Origin: Patescibacteria group bacterium
GTDB taxonomy: Bacteria; Patescibacteriota; Patescibacteriia; 2-01-FULL-39-33
Direction: 5' to 3'
NCBI GenBank assembly: GCA_041649575.1
Contig: JBAZMW010000002.1
Location: 150,001 to 182,000 of the forward strand
Length of the DNA: 32,000 bases
Shown: piece by piece, positions 6,669-31,436 of the stretch
Layout: each line of letters opens with the position of its first letter
Position numbering within the stretch: position 1 is the first letter of the stretch
Position numbers and translations under genes: made by a program
The notes under the pieces: model-generated
What the model was told of the DNA's origin: nothing
The model's database searches: none
What the model saw: only the letters and a program-made list of their open reading frames with translations

Positions 6669-6770
6669 AATATATCTTTCTCCAGAGAGAATGATTCATA
6701 GTCCACTTGTGGTGGAAGATGATTGCACAAAAGACAAGGGAACAGGAACCCAAGAAGGAGGCTGTACGTC

Positions 6771-7592
6771 ATGATTAAAAGAACCGTCGTGGGGCGACTT
6801 TTCCGTGATTCTGGCGCATTCGGCCAGTTGACGCCGCCGCCCGGTCTGGAGGGAACCATTGGTGATCCCGATTGGGATTTCTTCTCGAAGCTGCCGCCGC
6901 GTTTTGATTTTCTGGAACTCTGCGATCGGGTCGGCCACGCTTTTGAGATGTCCGAGTCACCCATCTCGCCCTCCGACTGGGAGGACCAGTTCGAAAGTCA
7001 GAAGGAGCGGCTGCTCGCTCTGTCCGGCTGCTCTGATGGCCATGGCATCGTGCTTTTGCCCGGCCTATTGCCAGTGGCTCCCGGTGATTGTATCAGGAAG
7101 AGCCTTTTCAATGTCTACATCCCGGCGGTAGAACGCGGCTACGGGGCGATCTATCCCAAGAGGGCTTTTGAGGATTGGTGTGATGGTCGGGCGGACAGTG
7201 TCGCGGCTTTTCCCGGAGTGGGCCACGAGCATCTAATCCACCTCGCCAGTAAAGGCTTGGTCGCCGTCTTCGTCTACATCGCCCATTGTATGCGGGCGTG
7301 GCCCGTCTCGACCCAGCGCCGACTGCCACGGAAGTTGTTCAAATCGAATTTCTCCTTGGCCGGCGGCTGTGACACGCTTTCCGTCCTGTCTCTGCACCCT
7401 GATATTCTCGCCGCTGGTTTCTGTAGCCCGACGATCGAGCTCAGTGCCTTGCAGACAGATTCGCCGCGCCTCTCGATCTGCGTGGTGCCAGAAGACAAAC
7501 GCCTCAGACTCGACATCTGGGGTAATCCCGACGATTTCGCGCCTGAAGCTTCAGGAGGGCTTTCGTTCTGGAAGGAGCAACCTGTCTTCTAG
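6771..7592 (+). CDS. Hypothetical protein (273 aa), GC-rich island A
   Basis: The track ORF 6723..7592 is trimmed to ATG 6771, which follows the SD GAAGGAGG by 8 nt. It is the longest ORF in a stop-depleted region. No motif recognised. Confidence 0.65.
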   Translation: MIKRTVVGRLFRDSGAFGQLTPPPGLEGTIGDPDWDFFSKLPPRFDFLELCDRVGHAFEMSESPISPSDWEDQFESQKERLLALSGCSDGHGIVLLPGLLPVAPGDCIRKSLFNVYIPAVERGYGAIYPKRAFEDWCDGRADSVAAFPGVGHEHLIHLASKGLVAVFVYIAHCMRAWPVSTQRRLPRKLFKSNFSLAGGCDTLSVLSLHPDILAAGFCSPTIELSALQTDSPRLSICVVPEDKRLRLDIWGNPDDFAPEASGGLSFWKEQPVF

Positions 7593-7710: not shown

Positions 7711-7763
7711 AATCTTTCGATCTTTCAAGTTAAACTAGTAAGGCAACCATGGAGGGAGCTGCC

Positions 7764-8501
7764 ATGTTTCTGGTATTATTTTCCATTCTGGTCTACCCAG
7801 TGGCCTTTGTCACCTTCGTCGTTTGCGCCTCAATCTACCTGGCGTTTGTCTTTGTCTTCAAGTCGCTGGGCTGGGAGCTGCAGTACCTGGGGCCGTTGGT
7901 TCGGTTTCTGGCTCGCGTGATTCTCTTGAGTTGTGGCCAATGGCTCAAGGTTGGGGGCAACTGGCCCTCTCCGACTATCGGGCCTTGCATCTTTCTCTTC
8001 AACCACAGCTCTATCCTGGATGCTCTGGTGGCTGGCGCGGTGCTAAAAGGACGGTTCACTGGCGTGGCTGCCCAGGAGTATTTCTTTTGGCCGCTGTGGG
8101 GAACCATTATGCGCTGGCACAATATCATTCCCATCAAGCGCAAGTGCCACGACGAGGCCATAGAGAGCATGCGGCGGGCGGAAGAGGCGATAAAAAACGG
8201 CTGGTCAATAGGCGGCTTTCCCGAGGGCACCAGAAGCAAGACAGGAGAGTTGCAGCCGTTCAAAAAGGGCCTTTTCTATGTGGCCAAGGCCACGGGCGCG
8301 CCGATCGTGGTGATAGCCATCAAGGGGGCGTACCGTGCCAAGAGTCGCGTCGGTTGGTGTGTTCGGCCGGGAGTGATAACGGCCACTATCGGCAAACCCT
8401 GGACCCTGTGGTCTAACGGAAAGCAACGGTATGCGGCCTTGTCGGTGGAAGAGTTAAGGCAACTGGCCGAAGGGCTCATGGCAACCATGCTCGAAAGTTG
8501 A
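7764..8501 (+). CDS. plsC: 1-acyl-sn-glycerol-3-phosphate (lysophospholipid) acyltransferase, PlsC/AGPAT family
   Basis: HX4D motif NHSSILD, FPEGTRS motif, PIVVIAI block and an N-terminal TM segment. The start is moved to ATG 7764, just downstream of the SD GGAGGGAG. Confidence 0.85.
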   Translation: MFLVLFSILVYPVAFVTFVVCASIYLAFVFVFKSLGWELQYLGPLVRFLARVILLSCGQWLKVGGNWPSPTIGPCIFLFNHSSILDALVAGAVLKGRFTGVAAQEYFFWPLWGTIMRWHNIIPIKRKCHDEAIESMRRAEEAIKNGWSIGGFPEGTRSKTGELQPFKKGLFYVAKATGAPIVVIAIKGAYRAKSRVGWCVRPGVITATIGKPWTLWSNGKQRYAALSVEELRQLAEGLMATMLES

Positions 8502-8609: not shown

Positions 8610-10427
8610 ATGACCGCCAAAGAACTCAAACAAAAATATTTAGAATTTTTTGAGCGCCACGGCCACCAGATTATTCCTGGCGCCTCACTGATTCCGGAGA
8701 ACGACCCGACGGTTTTATTTACCACGGCCGGCATGCATCCGCTCGTGCCTTATCTGCTTGGCGAAAAGCATCCCGCCGGCACACGCCTGGCCGATGTCCA
8801 AAAATGCATCAGGACCGGCGACATCGACAGCGTGGGCGACGACTGGCATCTGACTTTTTTTGAAATGCTGGGCAATTGGTCGCTGGGCGACCCCAAGGAT
8901 CCCAAAGGGATCGGGGCAGGTTATTTCAAAAAAGAAGCCATTGAGATGAGTTTTGAATTTTTAACCAAAGAGTTAAATATACCTTTGGAAAAATTGGCGG
9001 TTTCTTGCTTCGCCGGCGATGATGATGCGCCAAAAGACGAAGAATCGGCGAGTGCTTGGCGTTCGCTGGGGATCAGTGACAAACGGATTGCTTTTTTGAG
9101 TAAGGAAGATAATTGGTGGCCGGCCGGTGGCAAAATGCCCGGTCCTCAAGGCCCGGACACGGAGATGTTTTATTGGAACTCGGATGAGTCGGCGCCGGAA
9201 GATTTCGACCCACAGGACAAGCGCTGGGTGGAAATCTGGAATGATGTTTTTATGCAATATAACAAGGCCGCCGACGGCAGCTACCAGCCGCTGGTGCAAC
9301 AAAATGTCGATACCGGCATGGGATTGGAGCGTACCGTTGCTATCTTAAACGGCAAAAAAAGCGTCTACGAAATCGAGCCGCTCTTAACCGTTTGTTCGCA
9401 AGTAACGGCTTTATTCGAGAGCACCCTGGAAGAACTGGAAGCCGAACAAACCAAAGCCGTCAGAATCATTGCCGATCATTTGCGCGCCGCCGTCTTTATT
9501 TTGGCCGAGAGCGTGGCGCCCTCCAACGTTGAACGTGGCTATGTCCTGCGCCGGCTGATTCGGCGCGCTATTCGCTATGGCAAGCAACTGGGCATCAAAG
9601 ACGCTTTCACTGCCAAAGTGGCCGAAGTGGTCATCGCGCAAATGGGCGGATTTTATAAGGAACTAAGAGAACAGCGAGATTTCATTATCGATGAATTAAA
9701 CAACGAAGAAGAAAAGTTTAGCGCTACTTTAGAAAACGGCTTAAAAAAGTTTGAAAAATTAAAAATTGACGAGCAAAAAAAGATCAGCGGCCAAGATGCT
9801 TTTATTCTTTTTTCCACTTATGGTTTCCCTTTGGAGATTACCAAAGACTTGGCCACCGAGCGCGGTTGGCAAGTTGACGAAGAAAATTTTAATCTAGAAT
9901 TTGCCAAGCATCAGGACATTTCCCGAAAAGGCGCCGAGCAAAAATTCAAGGGCGGTTTGGCCGATAATAGCGAAGTGACGGCCAAGATGCATACCGCCAC
10001 GCATTTGATGTTGGCGGCTTTGCGCCGGGTGTTGGGCGATCACGTTTACCAAAAAGGTGCCAACATCACCAGCGAGCGCATTCGCTTTGATTTTTCCCAT
10101 GGCGAAAAAATGACAGCAGAACAAATCAAGCAAGTGGAAGACTTGGTCAATGAACAAATTAATAAAAAGATTCCCGTGGTCTGCGAAGAAATGACGCTAG
10201 AAGAAGCCAAGGAGAGGGGAGCGATGGGAGTTTTTAAAAATAAATACGGCGAGCGGGTTAAGGTTTATACCGTCGGCGATCCCTCGGCAGGATCGGGACA
10301 GGTTTTTTCCAAAGAGATTTGCGGCGGTCCGCATGCCGCCAACACCGGTGATCTGGGCCACTTCAAAATCCAAAAAGAAGAATCCAGCTCCGCCGGAGTC
10401 AGAAGAATTAAGGCGGTTCTGGAGTGA
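8610..10427 (+). CDS. alaS: Alanine--tRNA ligase, short form (605 aa, no C-Ala/DHHA1 domain)
   Basis: The N-terminus FFERHGH...SLIP.NDPT.LFT.AGM is typical of AlaRS. The editing-domain motifs HTATHLM and CGGPH are present. The protein ends shortly after the editing domain. Confidence 0.92.
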   Translation: MTAKELKQKYLEFFERHGHQIIPGASLIPENDPTVLFTTAGMHPLVPYLLGEKHPAGTRLADVQKCIRTGDIDSVGDDWHLTFFEMLGNWSLGDPKDPKGIGAGYFKKEAIEMSFEFLTKELNIPLEKLAVSCFAGDDDAPKDEESASAWRSLGISDKRIAFLSKEDNWWPAGGKMPGPQGPDTEMFYWNSDESAPEDFDPQDKRWVEIWNDVFMQYNKAADGSYQPLVQQNVDTGMGLERTVAILNGKKSVYEIEPLLTVCSQVTALFESTLEELEAEQTKAVRIIADHLRAAVFILAESVAPSNVERGYVLRRLIRRAIRYGKQLGIKDAFTAKVAEVVIAQMGGFYKELREQRDFIIDELNNEEEKFSATLENGLKKFEKLKIDEQKKISGQDAFILFSTYGFPLEITKDLATERGWQVDEENFNLEFAKHQDISRKGAEQKFKGGLADNSEVTAKMHTATHLMLAALRRVLGDHVYQKGANITSERIRFDFSHGEKMTAEQIKQVEDLVNEQINKKIPVVCEEMTLEEAKERGAMGVFKNKYGERVKVYTVGDPSAGSGQVFSKEICGGPHAANTGDLGHFKIQKEESSSAGVRRIKAVLE

Positions 10428-10473
10428 GTTTTTGGTATAATATAGAGTTCTATAAAATAAAACATTTATTTGG

Positions 10474-10498
10474 AAAGGCAGTGTTGCCTTTTTGTTTT
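10474..10498 (+). terminator. Intrinsic terminator after alaS
   Basis: AAAGGCA / TGCCTTT stem with loop GTGT, then a T-rich run. Confidence 0.6.
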
Positions 10499-10505
10499 CA
10501 TTTCT

Positions 10506-10713
10506 GCGAGCGCATGAAAATTTAGCAACAAAACAGGCGGAGTTCGAGCGTAAATTTTAATTTGTTTGAGCAAAAGCCACCAGTAAACTGGTGGCTTTTG
10601 CGAGTTATTAAAATTAGCGAGAACAACCCTGTTTTGTCTAAATTTTCATTTAGCTCGCGCTTTTTTCTTTTGTGTCAGCTTTTCTTTTTACTAAAAAAAG
10701 AAAAGCTGACACA
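10506..10713 (-). repeat. Structured intergenic repeat, copy E1 (inverted relative to E2/E3)
   Basis: Long imperfect palindrome 10506-10660 with arms GCGAGCGCATGAAAATTTAGCAACAAAACAGG / CCCTGTTTTGTCTAAATTTTCATTTAGCTCGCGC. Its core is the perfect hairpin GCAAAAGCCACCAG-TAAA-CTGGTGGCTTTTGC. A second hairpin lies at 10671-10713. The reverse complement of 10641-10713 matches 23139-23207 with about 4 differences. Confidence 0.7.
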
Positions 10714-10738
10714 AAAAAAGAGTATATTTAATAAACTA

Positions 10739-10767
10739 TTGACAGAATTCTAATTATATGCTATTAT
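10739..10767 (+). promoter_or_regulatory. Sigma70-type promoter for island B
   Basis: TTGACA (10739-10744), 17-nt spacer, TATTAT (10762-10767). Confidence 0.55.
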
Positions 10768-10843
10768 AATAAGAAGTACCTTTTACCACTGTGAGCTGGC
10801 CGACTTAGTCGGAAAACTAAGAACGAAGAAGGAGAAACACATC

Positions 10844-11200
10844 ATGAGTCAAAAGACTGGCATACTATTGCTGCTGTTGCGGCCGAAAGACGGAGCGGCC
10901 GTCTTCTTGGACTGGACCCAGAACGCCCTCTTCATGCTGGAGAGCGCGAGTGCCACAGGCGTTTCGCCGTTGGCCGAGAGGGAAGATCTGGCCAAGTGTA
11001 TGAAGGGTTACGAGCTGTGTCCCGCGCTTGGCTACGGCCTATGCGCCAGGTGCCCTATGTCAGTCACCGGCGGTGCTCTCTGTAATTTCTGGGCTTCCCA
11101 GGGATTCGCCCGCGTGCTCGACGCGCGCACAGAAGAGGAGGCGACCTTTGCCGATCTCGATGCCATGCGCGCCGCGCTCACCGCTTCCATTACCGGCTGA
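10844..11200 (+). CDS. Hypothetical protein (118 aa), GC-rich island B, gene 1
   Basis: SD GAAGGAG 8 nt upstream of the ATG. Contains 5 Cys, including CARCP. No family recognised. Confidence 0.65.
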   Translation: MSQKTGILLLLLRPKDGAAVFLDWTQNALFMLESASATGVSPLAEREDLAKCMKGYELCPALGYGLCARCPMSVTGGALCNFWASQGFARVLDARTEEEATFADLDAMRAALTASITG

Positions 11201-11215
11201 AAGGAGAACACGGAC

Positions 11216-11593
11216 ATGCCAACGGTACAAGTGGCCGCGATAAATCTGCCGGCTGGCGCCTTCCTTTTCTTCTATCCGGAACACGCCACCCCCCAGTACC
11301 TTCTGTACAAGAATATCTGGCTGGGACAGACGATGTTCAGGCAGAAGCTAAACGAAGACGAACTTCAGGCTCTCCTCGCCGCCGGTCGAAATGGGTGGGA
11401 GGAAGTGGGCGAGGTGACTCGACGAGAGTTGCAGGCCGCGGATCTCTCTGGACTGGTTCGCAATCTCAAGACCAGGTGCGTCTGGCCCGAGAATGCGACC
11501 GCGTCAATCGCTGTCAGTCCTGACTGCAGCGGACGATGCTCGGAGTGTCGCGGGTGCTATAGCGACATGGAGCCAGTCACAGTAGAGCGATAG
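11216..11593 (+). CDS. Hypothetical Cys-rich protein (125 aa), GC-rich island B, gene 2
   Basis: SD AAGGAG 9 nt upstream of the ATG, which lies 15 nt after the gene 1 stop. C-terminal cluster C-x17-C-x3-C-x2-C-x2-C (RCVW...DCSGRCSECRGC). Confidence 0.65.
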   Translation: MPTVQVAAINLPAGAFLFFYPEHATPQYLLYKNIWLGQTMFRQKLNEDELQALLAAGRNGWEEVGEVTRRELQAADLSGLVRNLKTRCVWPENATASIAVSPDCSGRCSECRGCYSDMEPVTVER

Positions 11594-11613
11594 TCACACT
11601 GTGGTTCGTATCC

Positions 11614-11657
11614 GGGGGTTGTTGGTCGAGAAAGACCGGCAACCCTCTTTTTTTTTA
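11614..11657 (+). terminator. Intrinsic terminator ending island B
   Basis: GGGTTGTTGGTC (11616-11627) / GACCGGCAACCC (11634-11645) with G-U pairs, then TC plus T9. Confidence 0.8.
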
Positions 11658-11684
11658 TTTAAATTTTAGAATCCCATTATTTCC

Positions 11685-11752
11685 TTGACATTTTTCGGTT
11701 CTTGCTTTAAAATACTTAAAGTTGTTGACAAATTAATCAAAATTGCTATAAT
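11685..11752 (+). promoter_or_regulatory. Tandem sigma70-type promoters upstream of infA
   Basis: TTGACA (11685) - 17 nt - TAAAAT (11708), and TTGACA (11725) - 16 nt - TATAAT (11747). Confidence 0.5.
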
Positions 11753-11864
11753 TAGCTTGAGCTTAAAAGTTTCAAAATTTAGCTTAATTAGTGTAAAATT
11801 CTAGGCCGACTAGAAGCTTATAAGTTGCCAAGAATTTTATTTTTATCTAAAATATTTAAGCTGC

Positions 11865-12104
11865 ATGAATCAAAAACAAGGCAATACCCCCGATTCCAAA
11901 GATTTTTTGGAAGTCGATGGAGAAGTACTGGAGCTTTTGCCGGCCGCCAGTTTCCGGGTGAAGCTGGAAAGCGGCCCGGAAATTTTGGCCCACTTGTCAG
12001 GCAAAATGAGGATGTTTAACATCCGCATCCTGCCCGGCGATCGCGTCAAGATCCAGATGACTCCTTACGATTTGACTCGGGGCAGGATAATCTACCGTTA
12101 TTAA
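11865..12104 (+). CDS. infA: Translation initiation factor IF-1
   Basis: S1-like OB fold sequence: [12 protein letters not shown]...[17 protein letters not shown]...IRILPGDRV...[14 protein letters not shown]. Confidence 0.9.
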
Positions 12105-12109
12105 AAATT

Positions 12110-12223
12110 ATGAAAGTCAGATCATCGGTAAAAAAAATCTGCAAAGATTGCAAGCTTGTCCGTCGCAAAAAACGGCTGGTTGTCATTTGCAAAAACCCTA
12201 AACATAAACAAAGACAGGGCTAG
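12110..12223 (+). CDS. rpmJ: 50S ribosomal protein L36
   Basis: Not in the ORF track because it is under 60 aa. Hand translation gives [37 protein letters not shown], a canonical zinc-ribbon L36, in the expected position between infA and rpsM. Confidence 0.9.
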
Positions 12224-30938: not shown

Positions 30939-31436
30939 CTATCTGAGGTGTAGAGCTTTCACCTCCGGTCCCTCACCGAAACACTTGCGTCCCGCCGGTG
31001 ACCCCGCAAGAAGCCGCAGACTGCAGGTTCGCTTGGCTTTCTCGACTTCCTCCATCAGGATTTGCAGTACGTAGAGGAGTCGGTCGACCGAGATCAACCT
31101 GGTCTTCAACTGCACACTTTCGGTCTCCACGTCGATACTGCCGACATGTTGCATCCGCCGCGTGACTTGCAGTTTGGGTCTGCGGCCCTCGACGGCTTTG
31201 ACCGCCTCCCGTGTCAAGACGATGACGTCAGAGCAGTTGAACTCCGATTCCCTCAGTCGTCGGCCGAATTCCCGGATGTGTTTTCCGTCCGTGCCGGATT
31301 CGCCATCCGGGTCAGGCATTTCGAACAGGAACATACGCTCCAAGGCTCTCCGCAGGTCATCTCGTGGGTCGATCCCGACGCTCCTCTCTTCTTCCGACAA
31401 CTCTTGTTCTCCCATTTCTGGCTTACCTTTCAGCAT
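30939..31436 (-). CDS. Hypothetical protein (165 aa), GC-rich island D
   Basis: ATG preceded by the SD GAGGAG (minus strand). It is the longest ORF in a stop-depleted region. The acidic N-terminus gives no recognisable motif. Confidence 0.6.
   Translation of the reverse strand: MLKGKPEMGEQELSEEERSVGIDPRDDLRRALERMFLFEMPDPDGESGTDGKHIREFGRRLRESEFNCSDVIVLTREAVKAVEGRRPKLQVTRRMQHVGSIDVETESVQLKTRLISVDRLLYVLQILMEEVEKAKRTCSLRLLAGSPAGRKCFGEGPEVKALHLR

Follow-up and report, generated by a model that had tools for sequence, protein, structure and literature searches.

The cysteine spacing CX3CX2C is that of the ligands of the radical-SAM iron-sulphur (Fe-S) cubane, and CX2CX2CX3C is a ferredoxin motif. 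A tail with related spacing ends the second of two small open reading frames (ORFs) analysed here in the genome of a Patescibacteria group bacterium (G000; 920 kb, 5 contigs, 98% complete), where both lie on the + strand and are bracketed by alaS (8610–10427) and infA (11865–12104). All coordinates refer to the window, i.e. the whole 32,000-nt stretch that was analysed (G000:C2:150001–182000). ORF1 (10844–11200) encodes 118 amino acids (aa) and ORF2 (11216–11593) 125 aa; the two genes, with their promoter and terminator, are referred to below as the cassette. The closest known relatives of the encoded proteins are two homologues of ORF2 (P0005 and P0004), in which the C-terminal four-cysteine (Cys4) knot is kept, and one homologue of ORF1 (P0003), which shares four cysteines with it. 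P0005 and P0003 occupy an alaS–infA slot like that of the cassette, but as single genes and not as a pair; since the homologues are hypothetical proteins, the families can be named by them but not explained. Our preferred reading, to which we assign a probability of about 0.55, is that ORF1 and ORF2 are two independent and mutually unrelated, soluble, fast-evolving accessory small proteins, restricted to a Candidatus Buchananbacteria-type lineage of the Patescibacteria and located in a hot spot of gene turnover between alaS and infA, and that both carry putative four-cysteine metal sites.

The ORF2 family consists of three sequences. Scanning 1.84 billion representatives in full with HMMER retrieved P0004 (125 aa, 44% identity, E 9e-19), encoded on an 802-kb ENA contig, and P0005 (124 aa, 41% identity, E 1e-14), which corresponds to the NCBI entry MFA5047548.1 (WC516_00735), a 'hypothetical protein' of a Patescibacteria group bacterium metagenome-assembled genome (MAG). 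Both align to ORF2 over the full length, with conservation of many hydrophobic and aromatic positions and of the motifs MP..A.N..FLF, LY..I..GQ..F, GWEEV and WP in the globular part, which precedes the C-terminal Cys4 knot. The pattern C-x3/4-C-x2-C-x2/4-C is invariant in the three sequences and reads C104-x3-C108-x2-C111-x2-C114 in ORF2, while the remaining cysteine of this protein, C88, is not conserved among the homologues. A preliminary description of this DNA had given the same x3-x2-x2 spacing, preceded by C-x17-C; the spacing is correct, but the first gap reads C88-x15-C104. The low-confidence secondary structure prediction for ORF2 is a beta-hairpin followed by three helices.

ORF1 comprises a beta-rich N-terminal segment, a variable Cys-rich middle with cysteines at positions 52, 59, 67, 70 and 80, and a conserved C-terminus (W-x2-QGF-x-R-x2-D-x-RT-x-EE-x-TF...AAL); its predicted secondary structure is beta-beta-beta/alpha-alpha/beta/alpha, again with low confidence. 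The homologue P0003 (113–116 aa, E 9e-11, ~35% identity) was found in G013, a 'Candidatus Buchananbacteria bacterium' MAG that belongs to the family of G000 but to a different genus. In the alignment of these two sequences C52, C59, C70 and C80 are invariant. Further members of the ORF1 family were found neither in 34 genomes of the family or 401 of the class, nor by a profile search of 5.8 billion clusters. The match of the ORF1 profile to polyubiquitin (E 7e-8) is an artefact, as it is a sum over repeats in which no single stretch is significant. The adjacency of alaS and csrA in E. coli prompted a comparison of the ORF1 N-terminus with CsrA, and this relationship was rejected as well (hhalign P 0.71).

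We propose that each protein would fold around a four-cysteine metal site, holding either Zn or an Fe-S cluster, with C52, C59, C70 and C80 of ORF1 and the invariant C104-C108-C111-C114 set of ORF2 as putative ligands. Four cysteines are invariant across the homologues in both the ORF1 family (2 sequences) and the ORF2 family (3 sequences). By analogy with Fe-S motifs, the Cys4 of ORF2 contains CX3CX2C and reads as the ferredoxin motif backwards, and ORF1, too, has four invariant cysteines; Cys4 zinc knuckles or ribbons are the other group to which such motifs can be compared. ORF2 differs from the Fe-S proteins, however, in having no radical-SAM barrel, no ferredoxin fold of the right size and no sequence match to them, and in the placement of its motif at the extreme C-terminus of a ~100-aa domain. 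No sequence match in Pfam, NCBIfam or PDB places either protein in a described family of Zn ribbons, ferredoxins or radical-SAM proteins. The most economical reading would be that ORF1 and ORF2 are small cytoplasmic accessory factors, probably metal- or redox-linked, rather than enzymes, toxins or secreted peptides; sequence inspection revealed neither a signal peptide nor a transmembrane (TM) segment in either of them.

Several observations weigh against this reading. As one family has just 2 members and the other 3, the claims of invariance are weak, and the Cys region of the ORF1 family diverges strongly (5 versus 10 cysteines, with a 10-residue indel). Four cysteines within 11–13 residues are unusually compact for a Zn site. 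Families in Pfam, NCBIfam and PDB are unmatched, and the AlphaFold2 models, built on two-sequence alignments, are unusable, their predicted local distance difference test scores (41.7 and 44.9) being too low for fold searches. Taken by itself, the metal-site part of the proposal is therefore tentative, and we would place it, roughly, somewhat below even odds. If ORF1 and ORF2 do bind Fe-S or Zn, they would enlarge the accessory proteome described for ultra-small episymbionts, a poorly explored set of proteins, many of which have not been assigned a function.

The independence of the two genes follows from their occurrence in other genomes. In G013 the gene order is alaS – ORF1 homologue – infA – rpsM – rpsK, without ORF2, and in L045, a 508-kb JGI contig, it is plsC-like gene – alaS – ORF2 homologue (P0005) – infA – rpsM – rpsK – rpsD, without ORF1. 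Each gene is thus found alone at the same locus, so that the two do not form an obligate module. Judged from this distribution, neither protein needs the other for its work, and both genes are accessory and can be dispensed with. All three loci share features of the transcription unit as well: a TG-extended, near-consensus promoter lies just 3' of alaS in G000, G013 and L045 (positions 5896–5924 of L045 and 1889–1861 of the G013 locus L005), and the leader of L045, measured from the –10 box to the ATG (76 nt), has the same length as in G000. G000 and L045 can be aligned over the promoter and the initial ~35 nt of the leader (AATAAGAAGTACC..TGTGAGCTG), and the Shine-Dalgarno region of ORF2 resembles GAAAGGAGA.CA.G.A.ATGCC, present ahead of the L045 homologue. 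Strong GC-rich hairpins followed by a T-rich stretch were recognized by eye 3' of the L045 and G013 homologues, although the consensus scan did not list terminators there.

The preliminary description had suggested a toxin–antitoxin or defence pair. Such a reading, in which the genes would form a toxin–antitoxin module or a two-component anti-phage defence system, would account for two small adjacent genes with a patchy distribution that are predicted to be co-transcribed from a promoter of their own up to a terminator of their own, and type II toxin–antitoxin modules do resemble the cassette in consisting of two small neighbouring genes in a single transcription unit (in the cassette, 15 nt apart and with one promoter and one terminator). 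The partners in the cassette are not co-inherited, however: the ORF1 homologue stands alone in G013 and the ORF2 homologue in L045, at the same locus. Toxin, antitoxin and defence families are unmatched in PADLOC, Pfam and NCBIfam (in PADLOC-DB, 0 families at E<=1 for ORF1, ORF2 and P0003), and no DNA-binding domain of the antitoxin type was detected. Moreover, the neighbours (a plsC-like gene, alaS, infA, rpmJ, rpsM, rpsK, rpsD and rpoA) do not form a defence island. We regard a toxin–antitoxin or defence pair as very improbable.

The slot itself was compared among 29 relatives from the same family. alaS lies directly upstream of infA, at a distance of <=1.5 kb, in 20 of them, the length of the gap ranging from 205 to >1500 bp. 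The gap is empty (205–252 bp) in 8 genomes and is filled by a 65–97-aa TM/coiled-coil ORF in 4; the other cargo includes methyltransferase-like, HAD-like, RluA-like and HD-domain genes, a dCMP-deaminase-like gene, a ThiF-like gene paired with a ubiquitin-like one, a transposase and further small ORFs. In G023, the sister of G013, the slot is empty, and the infA promoters begin ~14 nt past the alaS stop codon. In a tree based on InfA, S13 and S11 (31 rows, all kept), G000, G013 and L045 are placed in separate clades with node support of 0.93–1.0. The cassette had been described as interrupting secY-adk-map ahead of infA; this does not agree with the position of alaS in the relatives, nor with the secY gene of G000, which is found on a different contig. 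Comparison of gene order indicates that alaS and infA were already neighbours in the ancestor of the family, so that the cassette did not create their junction, and that genes are gained and lost at this site, a hot spot of turnover.

The slot resembles variable islets and integration hot spots in having a conserved flanking pair, alaS and infA, with contents that differ among genera. It differs from them in that no integrase or att sites were seen, and in that the cargo is tiny (0.5–1 kb), each with its own promoter and terminator. These data document a small-scale hot spot of gene turnover beside the infA/ribosomal-protein operon. The value of the analysis is mainly negative, since a candidate toxin–antitoxin or defence pair resolves into orphan genes that are independent of each other, and what had been taken for the interruption of an operon turns out to be a junction that is normal throughout the family; on the positive side, two new and very small protein families, specific to Patescibacteria, are defined, both with apparently invariant four-cysteine sites (2 and 3 sequences).

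Some of the other slot genes deserve mention. The TM/coiled-coil ORF, located directly after alaS in loci L019, L036, L039 and L041 (G010, G024, G014 and G033, three of them from the largest genus), encodes one TM helix and a leucine-zipper-like coiled coil, and by eye is similar to FtsB/DivIC. In two members of one genus (L021 of G025 and L027 of G027) the slot contains a ThiF/E1-like gene (209–221 aa), followed by a gene for a GC-rich 109–122-aa protein with a beta-grasp-like C-terminal half ending in ...GRKG/GTKG; it is possible that the two constitute a ubiquitin-like conjugation pair. Other small slot proteins are those of the 'A5' family (86–108 aa; L014, L015 and L034 of G020, G009 and G018, respectively) and two proteins encoded in tandem (131 and 86 aa) in L022 (G004). 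All of these small slot proteins come with a promoter and a terminator of their own, and their N- and C-terminal short motifs are faintly like those of ORF2 and ORF1, respectively.

One may ask whether ORF1, ORF2 and the A5 proteins of G009, G020 and G018 all descend from one fast-evolving slot gene, ORF1 and ORF2 being the products of an old tandem duplication. The N-terminus of ORF2 compared with that of A5 gave an hhalign P of 0.002, and the C-terminus of ORF1 compared with that of A5 gave 0.003; the shuffle p values ranged from 5e-4 to 1e-2 for several cross-family pairs, with 16 of the 50 pairs below 0.05. The position and the layout of the transcription unit are identical, and the two Shine-Dalgarno regions of the cassette are alike. 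However, the hhalign probabilities reach only 10–13%, the direct comparison of ORF1 with ORF2 gave nothing (P 0.25), phmmer detected no cross-family significance, and the A5 hidden Markov model does not place ORF1 or ORF2 among its top matches of the 6846 G000 ORFs. A common origin is thus unlikely in our opinion. Slightly less likely still is a broader version, in which the alaS–infA spacer would be a dedicated, recombination-exchangeable expression slot, with a conserved strong promoter and leader driving interchangeable, fast-evolving small proteins, so that ORF1, ORF2 and A5 would be one diverged family, some members of which acquired Cys4 metal sites. Were this true, the fast evolution, patchiness and high GC would reflect diversifying selection, e.g. 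in the dealings of the episymbionts with host cells or phages.

Returning to two independent accessory proteins, comparisons at the codon level indicate that ORF1 and ORF2 are genuine, fast-evolving protein genes under purifying but relaxed selection. In the cassette ORFs the GC content is highest at the third codon position (GC3), followed by the first and the second (GC3 > GC1 > GC2), i.e. the pattern of coding DNA, and GC3 amounts to 0.73 for ORF1 and 0.66 for ORF2. The proportions of nonsynonymous (pN) and synonymous (pS) differences are 0.48 and 0.73 between ORF1 and its G013 homologue, and 0.44 and 0.86 in the ORF2 family; as synonymous sites are saturated in these comparisons, the ratio of nonsynonymous (dN) to synonymous (dS) divergence is unreliable. 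Homologues with pN below pS therefore do exist, contrary to the case that the preliminary description had named as refuting its view, in which the ORFs would show no conservation or purifying selection in any other genome. For the same pairs of genomes, dN is 0.66–0.78 for ORF1 and ORF2 but 0.16–0.25 for infA, rpsM and alaS, a 3–4-fold difference from which fast evolution can be concluded. Polymorphism for a test of selection was not found, the sole other assembly (L001) being 100% identical.

The least probable of the readings that we considered is that the cassette does not code for proteins but for a structured, GC-rich RNA within an AT-rich spacer, its ORFs being open by chance. The island is indeed GC-rich, with a promoter at one end and a terminator at the other, and the folding of the transcript beats that of shuffled sequences (z –4.2, 20 shuffles). 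On the other hand, the ORFs stay open in other genomes, their aligned codons have pN < pS, the Shine-Dalgarno sites are correctly spaced, the GC content follows the codon positions periodically, and no Rfam match was found within the cassette. The folding score is outweighed by this coding evidence.

The cassette stands out by its composition, with a GC content of 0.59/0.58 in segments of 400 nt compared with 0.33–0.37 in the flanks. ORF1 (0.61) and ORF2 (0.58) exceed the genome mean (0.448, standard deviation 0.058, for 784 ORFs of >=100 aa) by 2.3–2.8 standard deviations, which might point to a recently acquired GC-rich cassette, derived from a GC-richer donor or a mobile element and foreign to the gene pool of the lineage. 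Such an origin would also agree with the patchy spread over the family tree, including presence and absence within one genus, and with the dispersed hairpin repeat located directly upstream (~10495–10720). However, high GC is a common property in this genome: 51 of the 784 ORFs, distributed over all five contigs, fall into a class with GC of 0.56–0.68 and GC3 of ~0.6–0.79, which includes, as judged from the sequences, Ig-repeat surface proteins, PilM/PilT-like proteins and a DinG-like helicase, as well as the neighbouring plsC-like gene. The orthologues of ORF1 and ORF2 and the plsC-like gene are GC-rich in their own genomes too (0.51–0.58 versus 0.42–0.44), and because the orthologues have kept this composition although their synonymous sites are saturated, a recent, undrifted import is disfavoured.

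The distribution of homologues points in the same direction. Their sole occurrences are in Patescibacteria MAGs and metagenome contigs; the two with readable context share the slot and a similar promoter and leader, and they have diverged more, not less, than the flanking genes. No relatives outside this group were obtained in the 1.84-billion representative scan (ORF2) or in the word and profile searches of 5.8 billion clusters, and there were none in viral contigs, phage records or plasmids. Furthermore, no integrase, transposase or flanking direct repeats of >=10 nt were found in the slot of the window. We therefore consider a foreign origin of the cassette unlikely. It can be added that examples of the high-GC class are present elsewhere in the window (6723–7592, 7749–8501 and 30939–31436), and that in L045, a distant relative, the plsC-like gene is just as rich in GC, which makes the heterogeneity a long-standing one.

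The repeat mentioned above is located between the alaS terminator and the cassette promoter and is composed of nested palindromes (10514–10649 and 10570–10601) and a 25-bp hairpin (10665–10719). It has at least 15 full or partial copies, detected by blastn on all five contigs, the best being C1:16505–16710 (92% over 207 nt), and is absent from this site in L045 and G013. In a rough count, ~5 of ~16 copies lie within 200 bp of a gene with GC >=0.56, slightly above expectation.

Assignment of ORF1 and ORF2 to known families was attempted with several databases. The view of the preliminary description that they are small Cys-rich proteins of no known family is upheld, as no significant match was obtained in Pfam, NCBIfam, PHROGs, PADLOC or PDB sequences, and in the word-indexed search of 5.8 billion clusters both matched only themselves. 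No paralogues were found within G000, and the profiles of both families detected nothing past G000 in the samples of 401 genomes of the class. Matches to DUF4177 (E 0.06), to phrog_5301 'repressor' (E 0.02) and to the tail of a helix-turn-helix protein (PDB 9iaq, E 0.18) were discarded as sub-threshold and mutually inconsistent. Literature searches that covered Buchananbacteria and small Cys-rich proteins from the Candidate Phyla Radiation yielded nothing relevant to ORF1 or ORF2. We conclude that they represent two tiny, lineage-restricted Patescibacteria protein families without prior names, the category of lineage-specific small accessory proteins being a familiar one.

The similarity of ORF2 that was most worth closer inspection was that to MbnC and TglI, partners of DUF692 enzymes, with which it shares a 36-residue stretch (WL.Q..FR..L.ED.L....A....W). 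Residues 28–63 aligned with MbnC with E values of 0.027 (7tcr_C), 0.021 (TIGR04160) and 0.0076 (TIGR04061), the C-terminal Cys framework of ORF2 is conserved while the intervening residues vary, and the genome carries three radical-SAM/SPASM genes. These features would fit a system for ribosomally synthesized and post-translationally modified peptides (RiPPs), in which ORF1 would be a Cys-rich substrate and ORF2 either a peptide-binding partner of the MbnC/TglI type or a precursor that consists of a long leader and a Cys-rich core. However, the match is not family-wide, as P0004 and P0005 have no match to the NCBIfam models of MbnC type, and it weakens with the family profile (E 0.058 versus 0.027 for the single sequence); the scores of ORF2 against TIGR04160 and TIGR04061 (14.3 and 16.1 bits) are far from the cut-offs (185 and 124). 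The SPASM genes are >100 kb away or on other contigs, no maturase is adjacent, and neither a match to MbnB/DUF692 (PF05114) nor a C39 peptidase was found in this 98%-complete genome. The leader models for long-leader precursors of the NHLP/Nif11 type gave no match. Homology of ORF2 to MbnC/TglI is thus rejected, the profile, the other members and the DUF692-partner tests having all failed, and a RiPP system is hardly to be expected, even slightly less so than a toxin–antitoxin or defence pair.

The cassette is a self-contained two-gene expression unit with its own promoter, leader and terminator, and the layout given in the preliminary description (a GC-rich unit of a promoter, two ORFs each led by AAGGAG, and a terminator) was found at the positions that it listed. 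The sigma-70-type, TG-extended promoter (10739–10767, + strand) consists of TTGACA, a 17-nt spacer and TATTAT, matching the consensus at 11 of 12 positions. It is followed on the same strand by a 5' leader of ~76 nt (10768–10843), containing a small hairpin (CCGAC-TTA-GTCGG, 10800–10812) and the Shine-Dalgarno sequence of ORF1 (AAGGAG, 10829–10834); that of ORF2 (AAGGAG, 11201–11206) lies in the spacer between the two genes (11201–11215), and in both cases the motif sits 9 nt ahead of the ATG. The unit ends with an intrinsic terminator (11614–11656, + strand), composed of a GC-rich stem (11614–11647) with a 6-nt loop and T9 (11648–11656); the strong hairpin and the T9 run had been recognized before, but the stem has 14 pairs rather than 12. 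This architecture predicts a single bicistronic mRNA. As the AT-rich spacers are full of promoter-like sites (8 found in 10300–12000 versus 1.5 expected), the promoter call is weak when taken alone, but it gains weight because a similar promoter is conserved in two other genomes. The cassette adjoins infA, with 100% identity over 1.5 kb, also in the independent Logan assembly of run SRR8542065, and is therefore not an assembly artefact or a chimera.

Within the transcript, a leader segment (CACUGUGAGCUGG, 10787–10799) can form base pairs with CCAGUCACAGU, located where ORF2 ends (11571–11583), and this pairing is present in the minimum free energy fold; it probably arose by chance, as no equivalent is seen in L045. 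The sequence CACTGTG recurs just 3' of the ORF2 stop codon (11596–11605).

Downstream of the cassette, the leader of infA (11685–11864) contains tandem consensus promoters (TTGACA-17-TAAAAT and TTGACA-16-TATAAT) and a long-range stem, AAAAUUCUAGGC...GCCAAGAAUUUU (arms 11794–11806 and 11827–11839), which has a variable hairpin between its arms and leads into UUUUAUUUUU, a U-run extending to 11845, and thus has the look of a terminator or attenuator ahead of infA. As counted by a script, the outer stem and the U-run are present in 15 of the 29 family loci, whereas the inner helices vary in sequence but stay self-complementary. This suggests that the infA leader is a conserved cis-regulatory element, one for which no Rfam match was found. 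The short ORF that follows infA (12108–12221) looks like rpmJ (L36); if so, the gene order downstream of the slot, infA-rpmJ-rpsM-rpsK-rpsD-rpoA-rplQ, is canonical.

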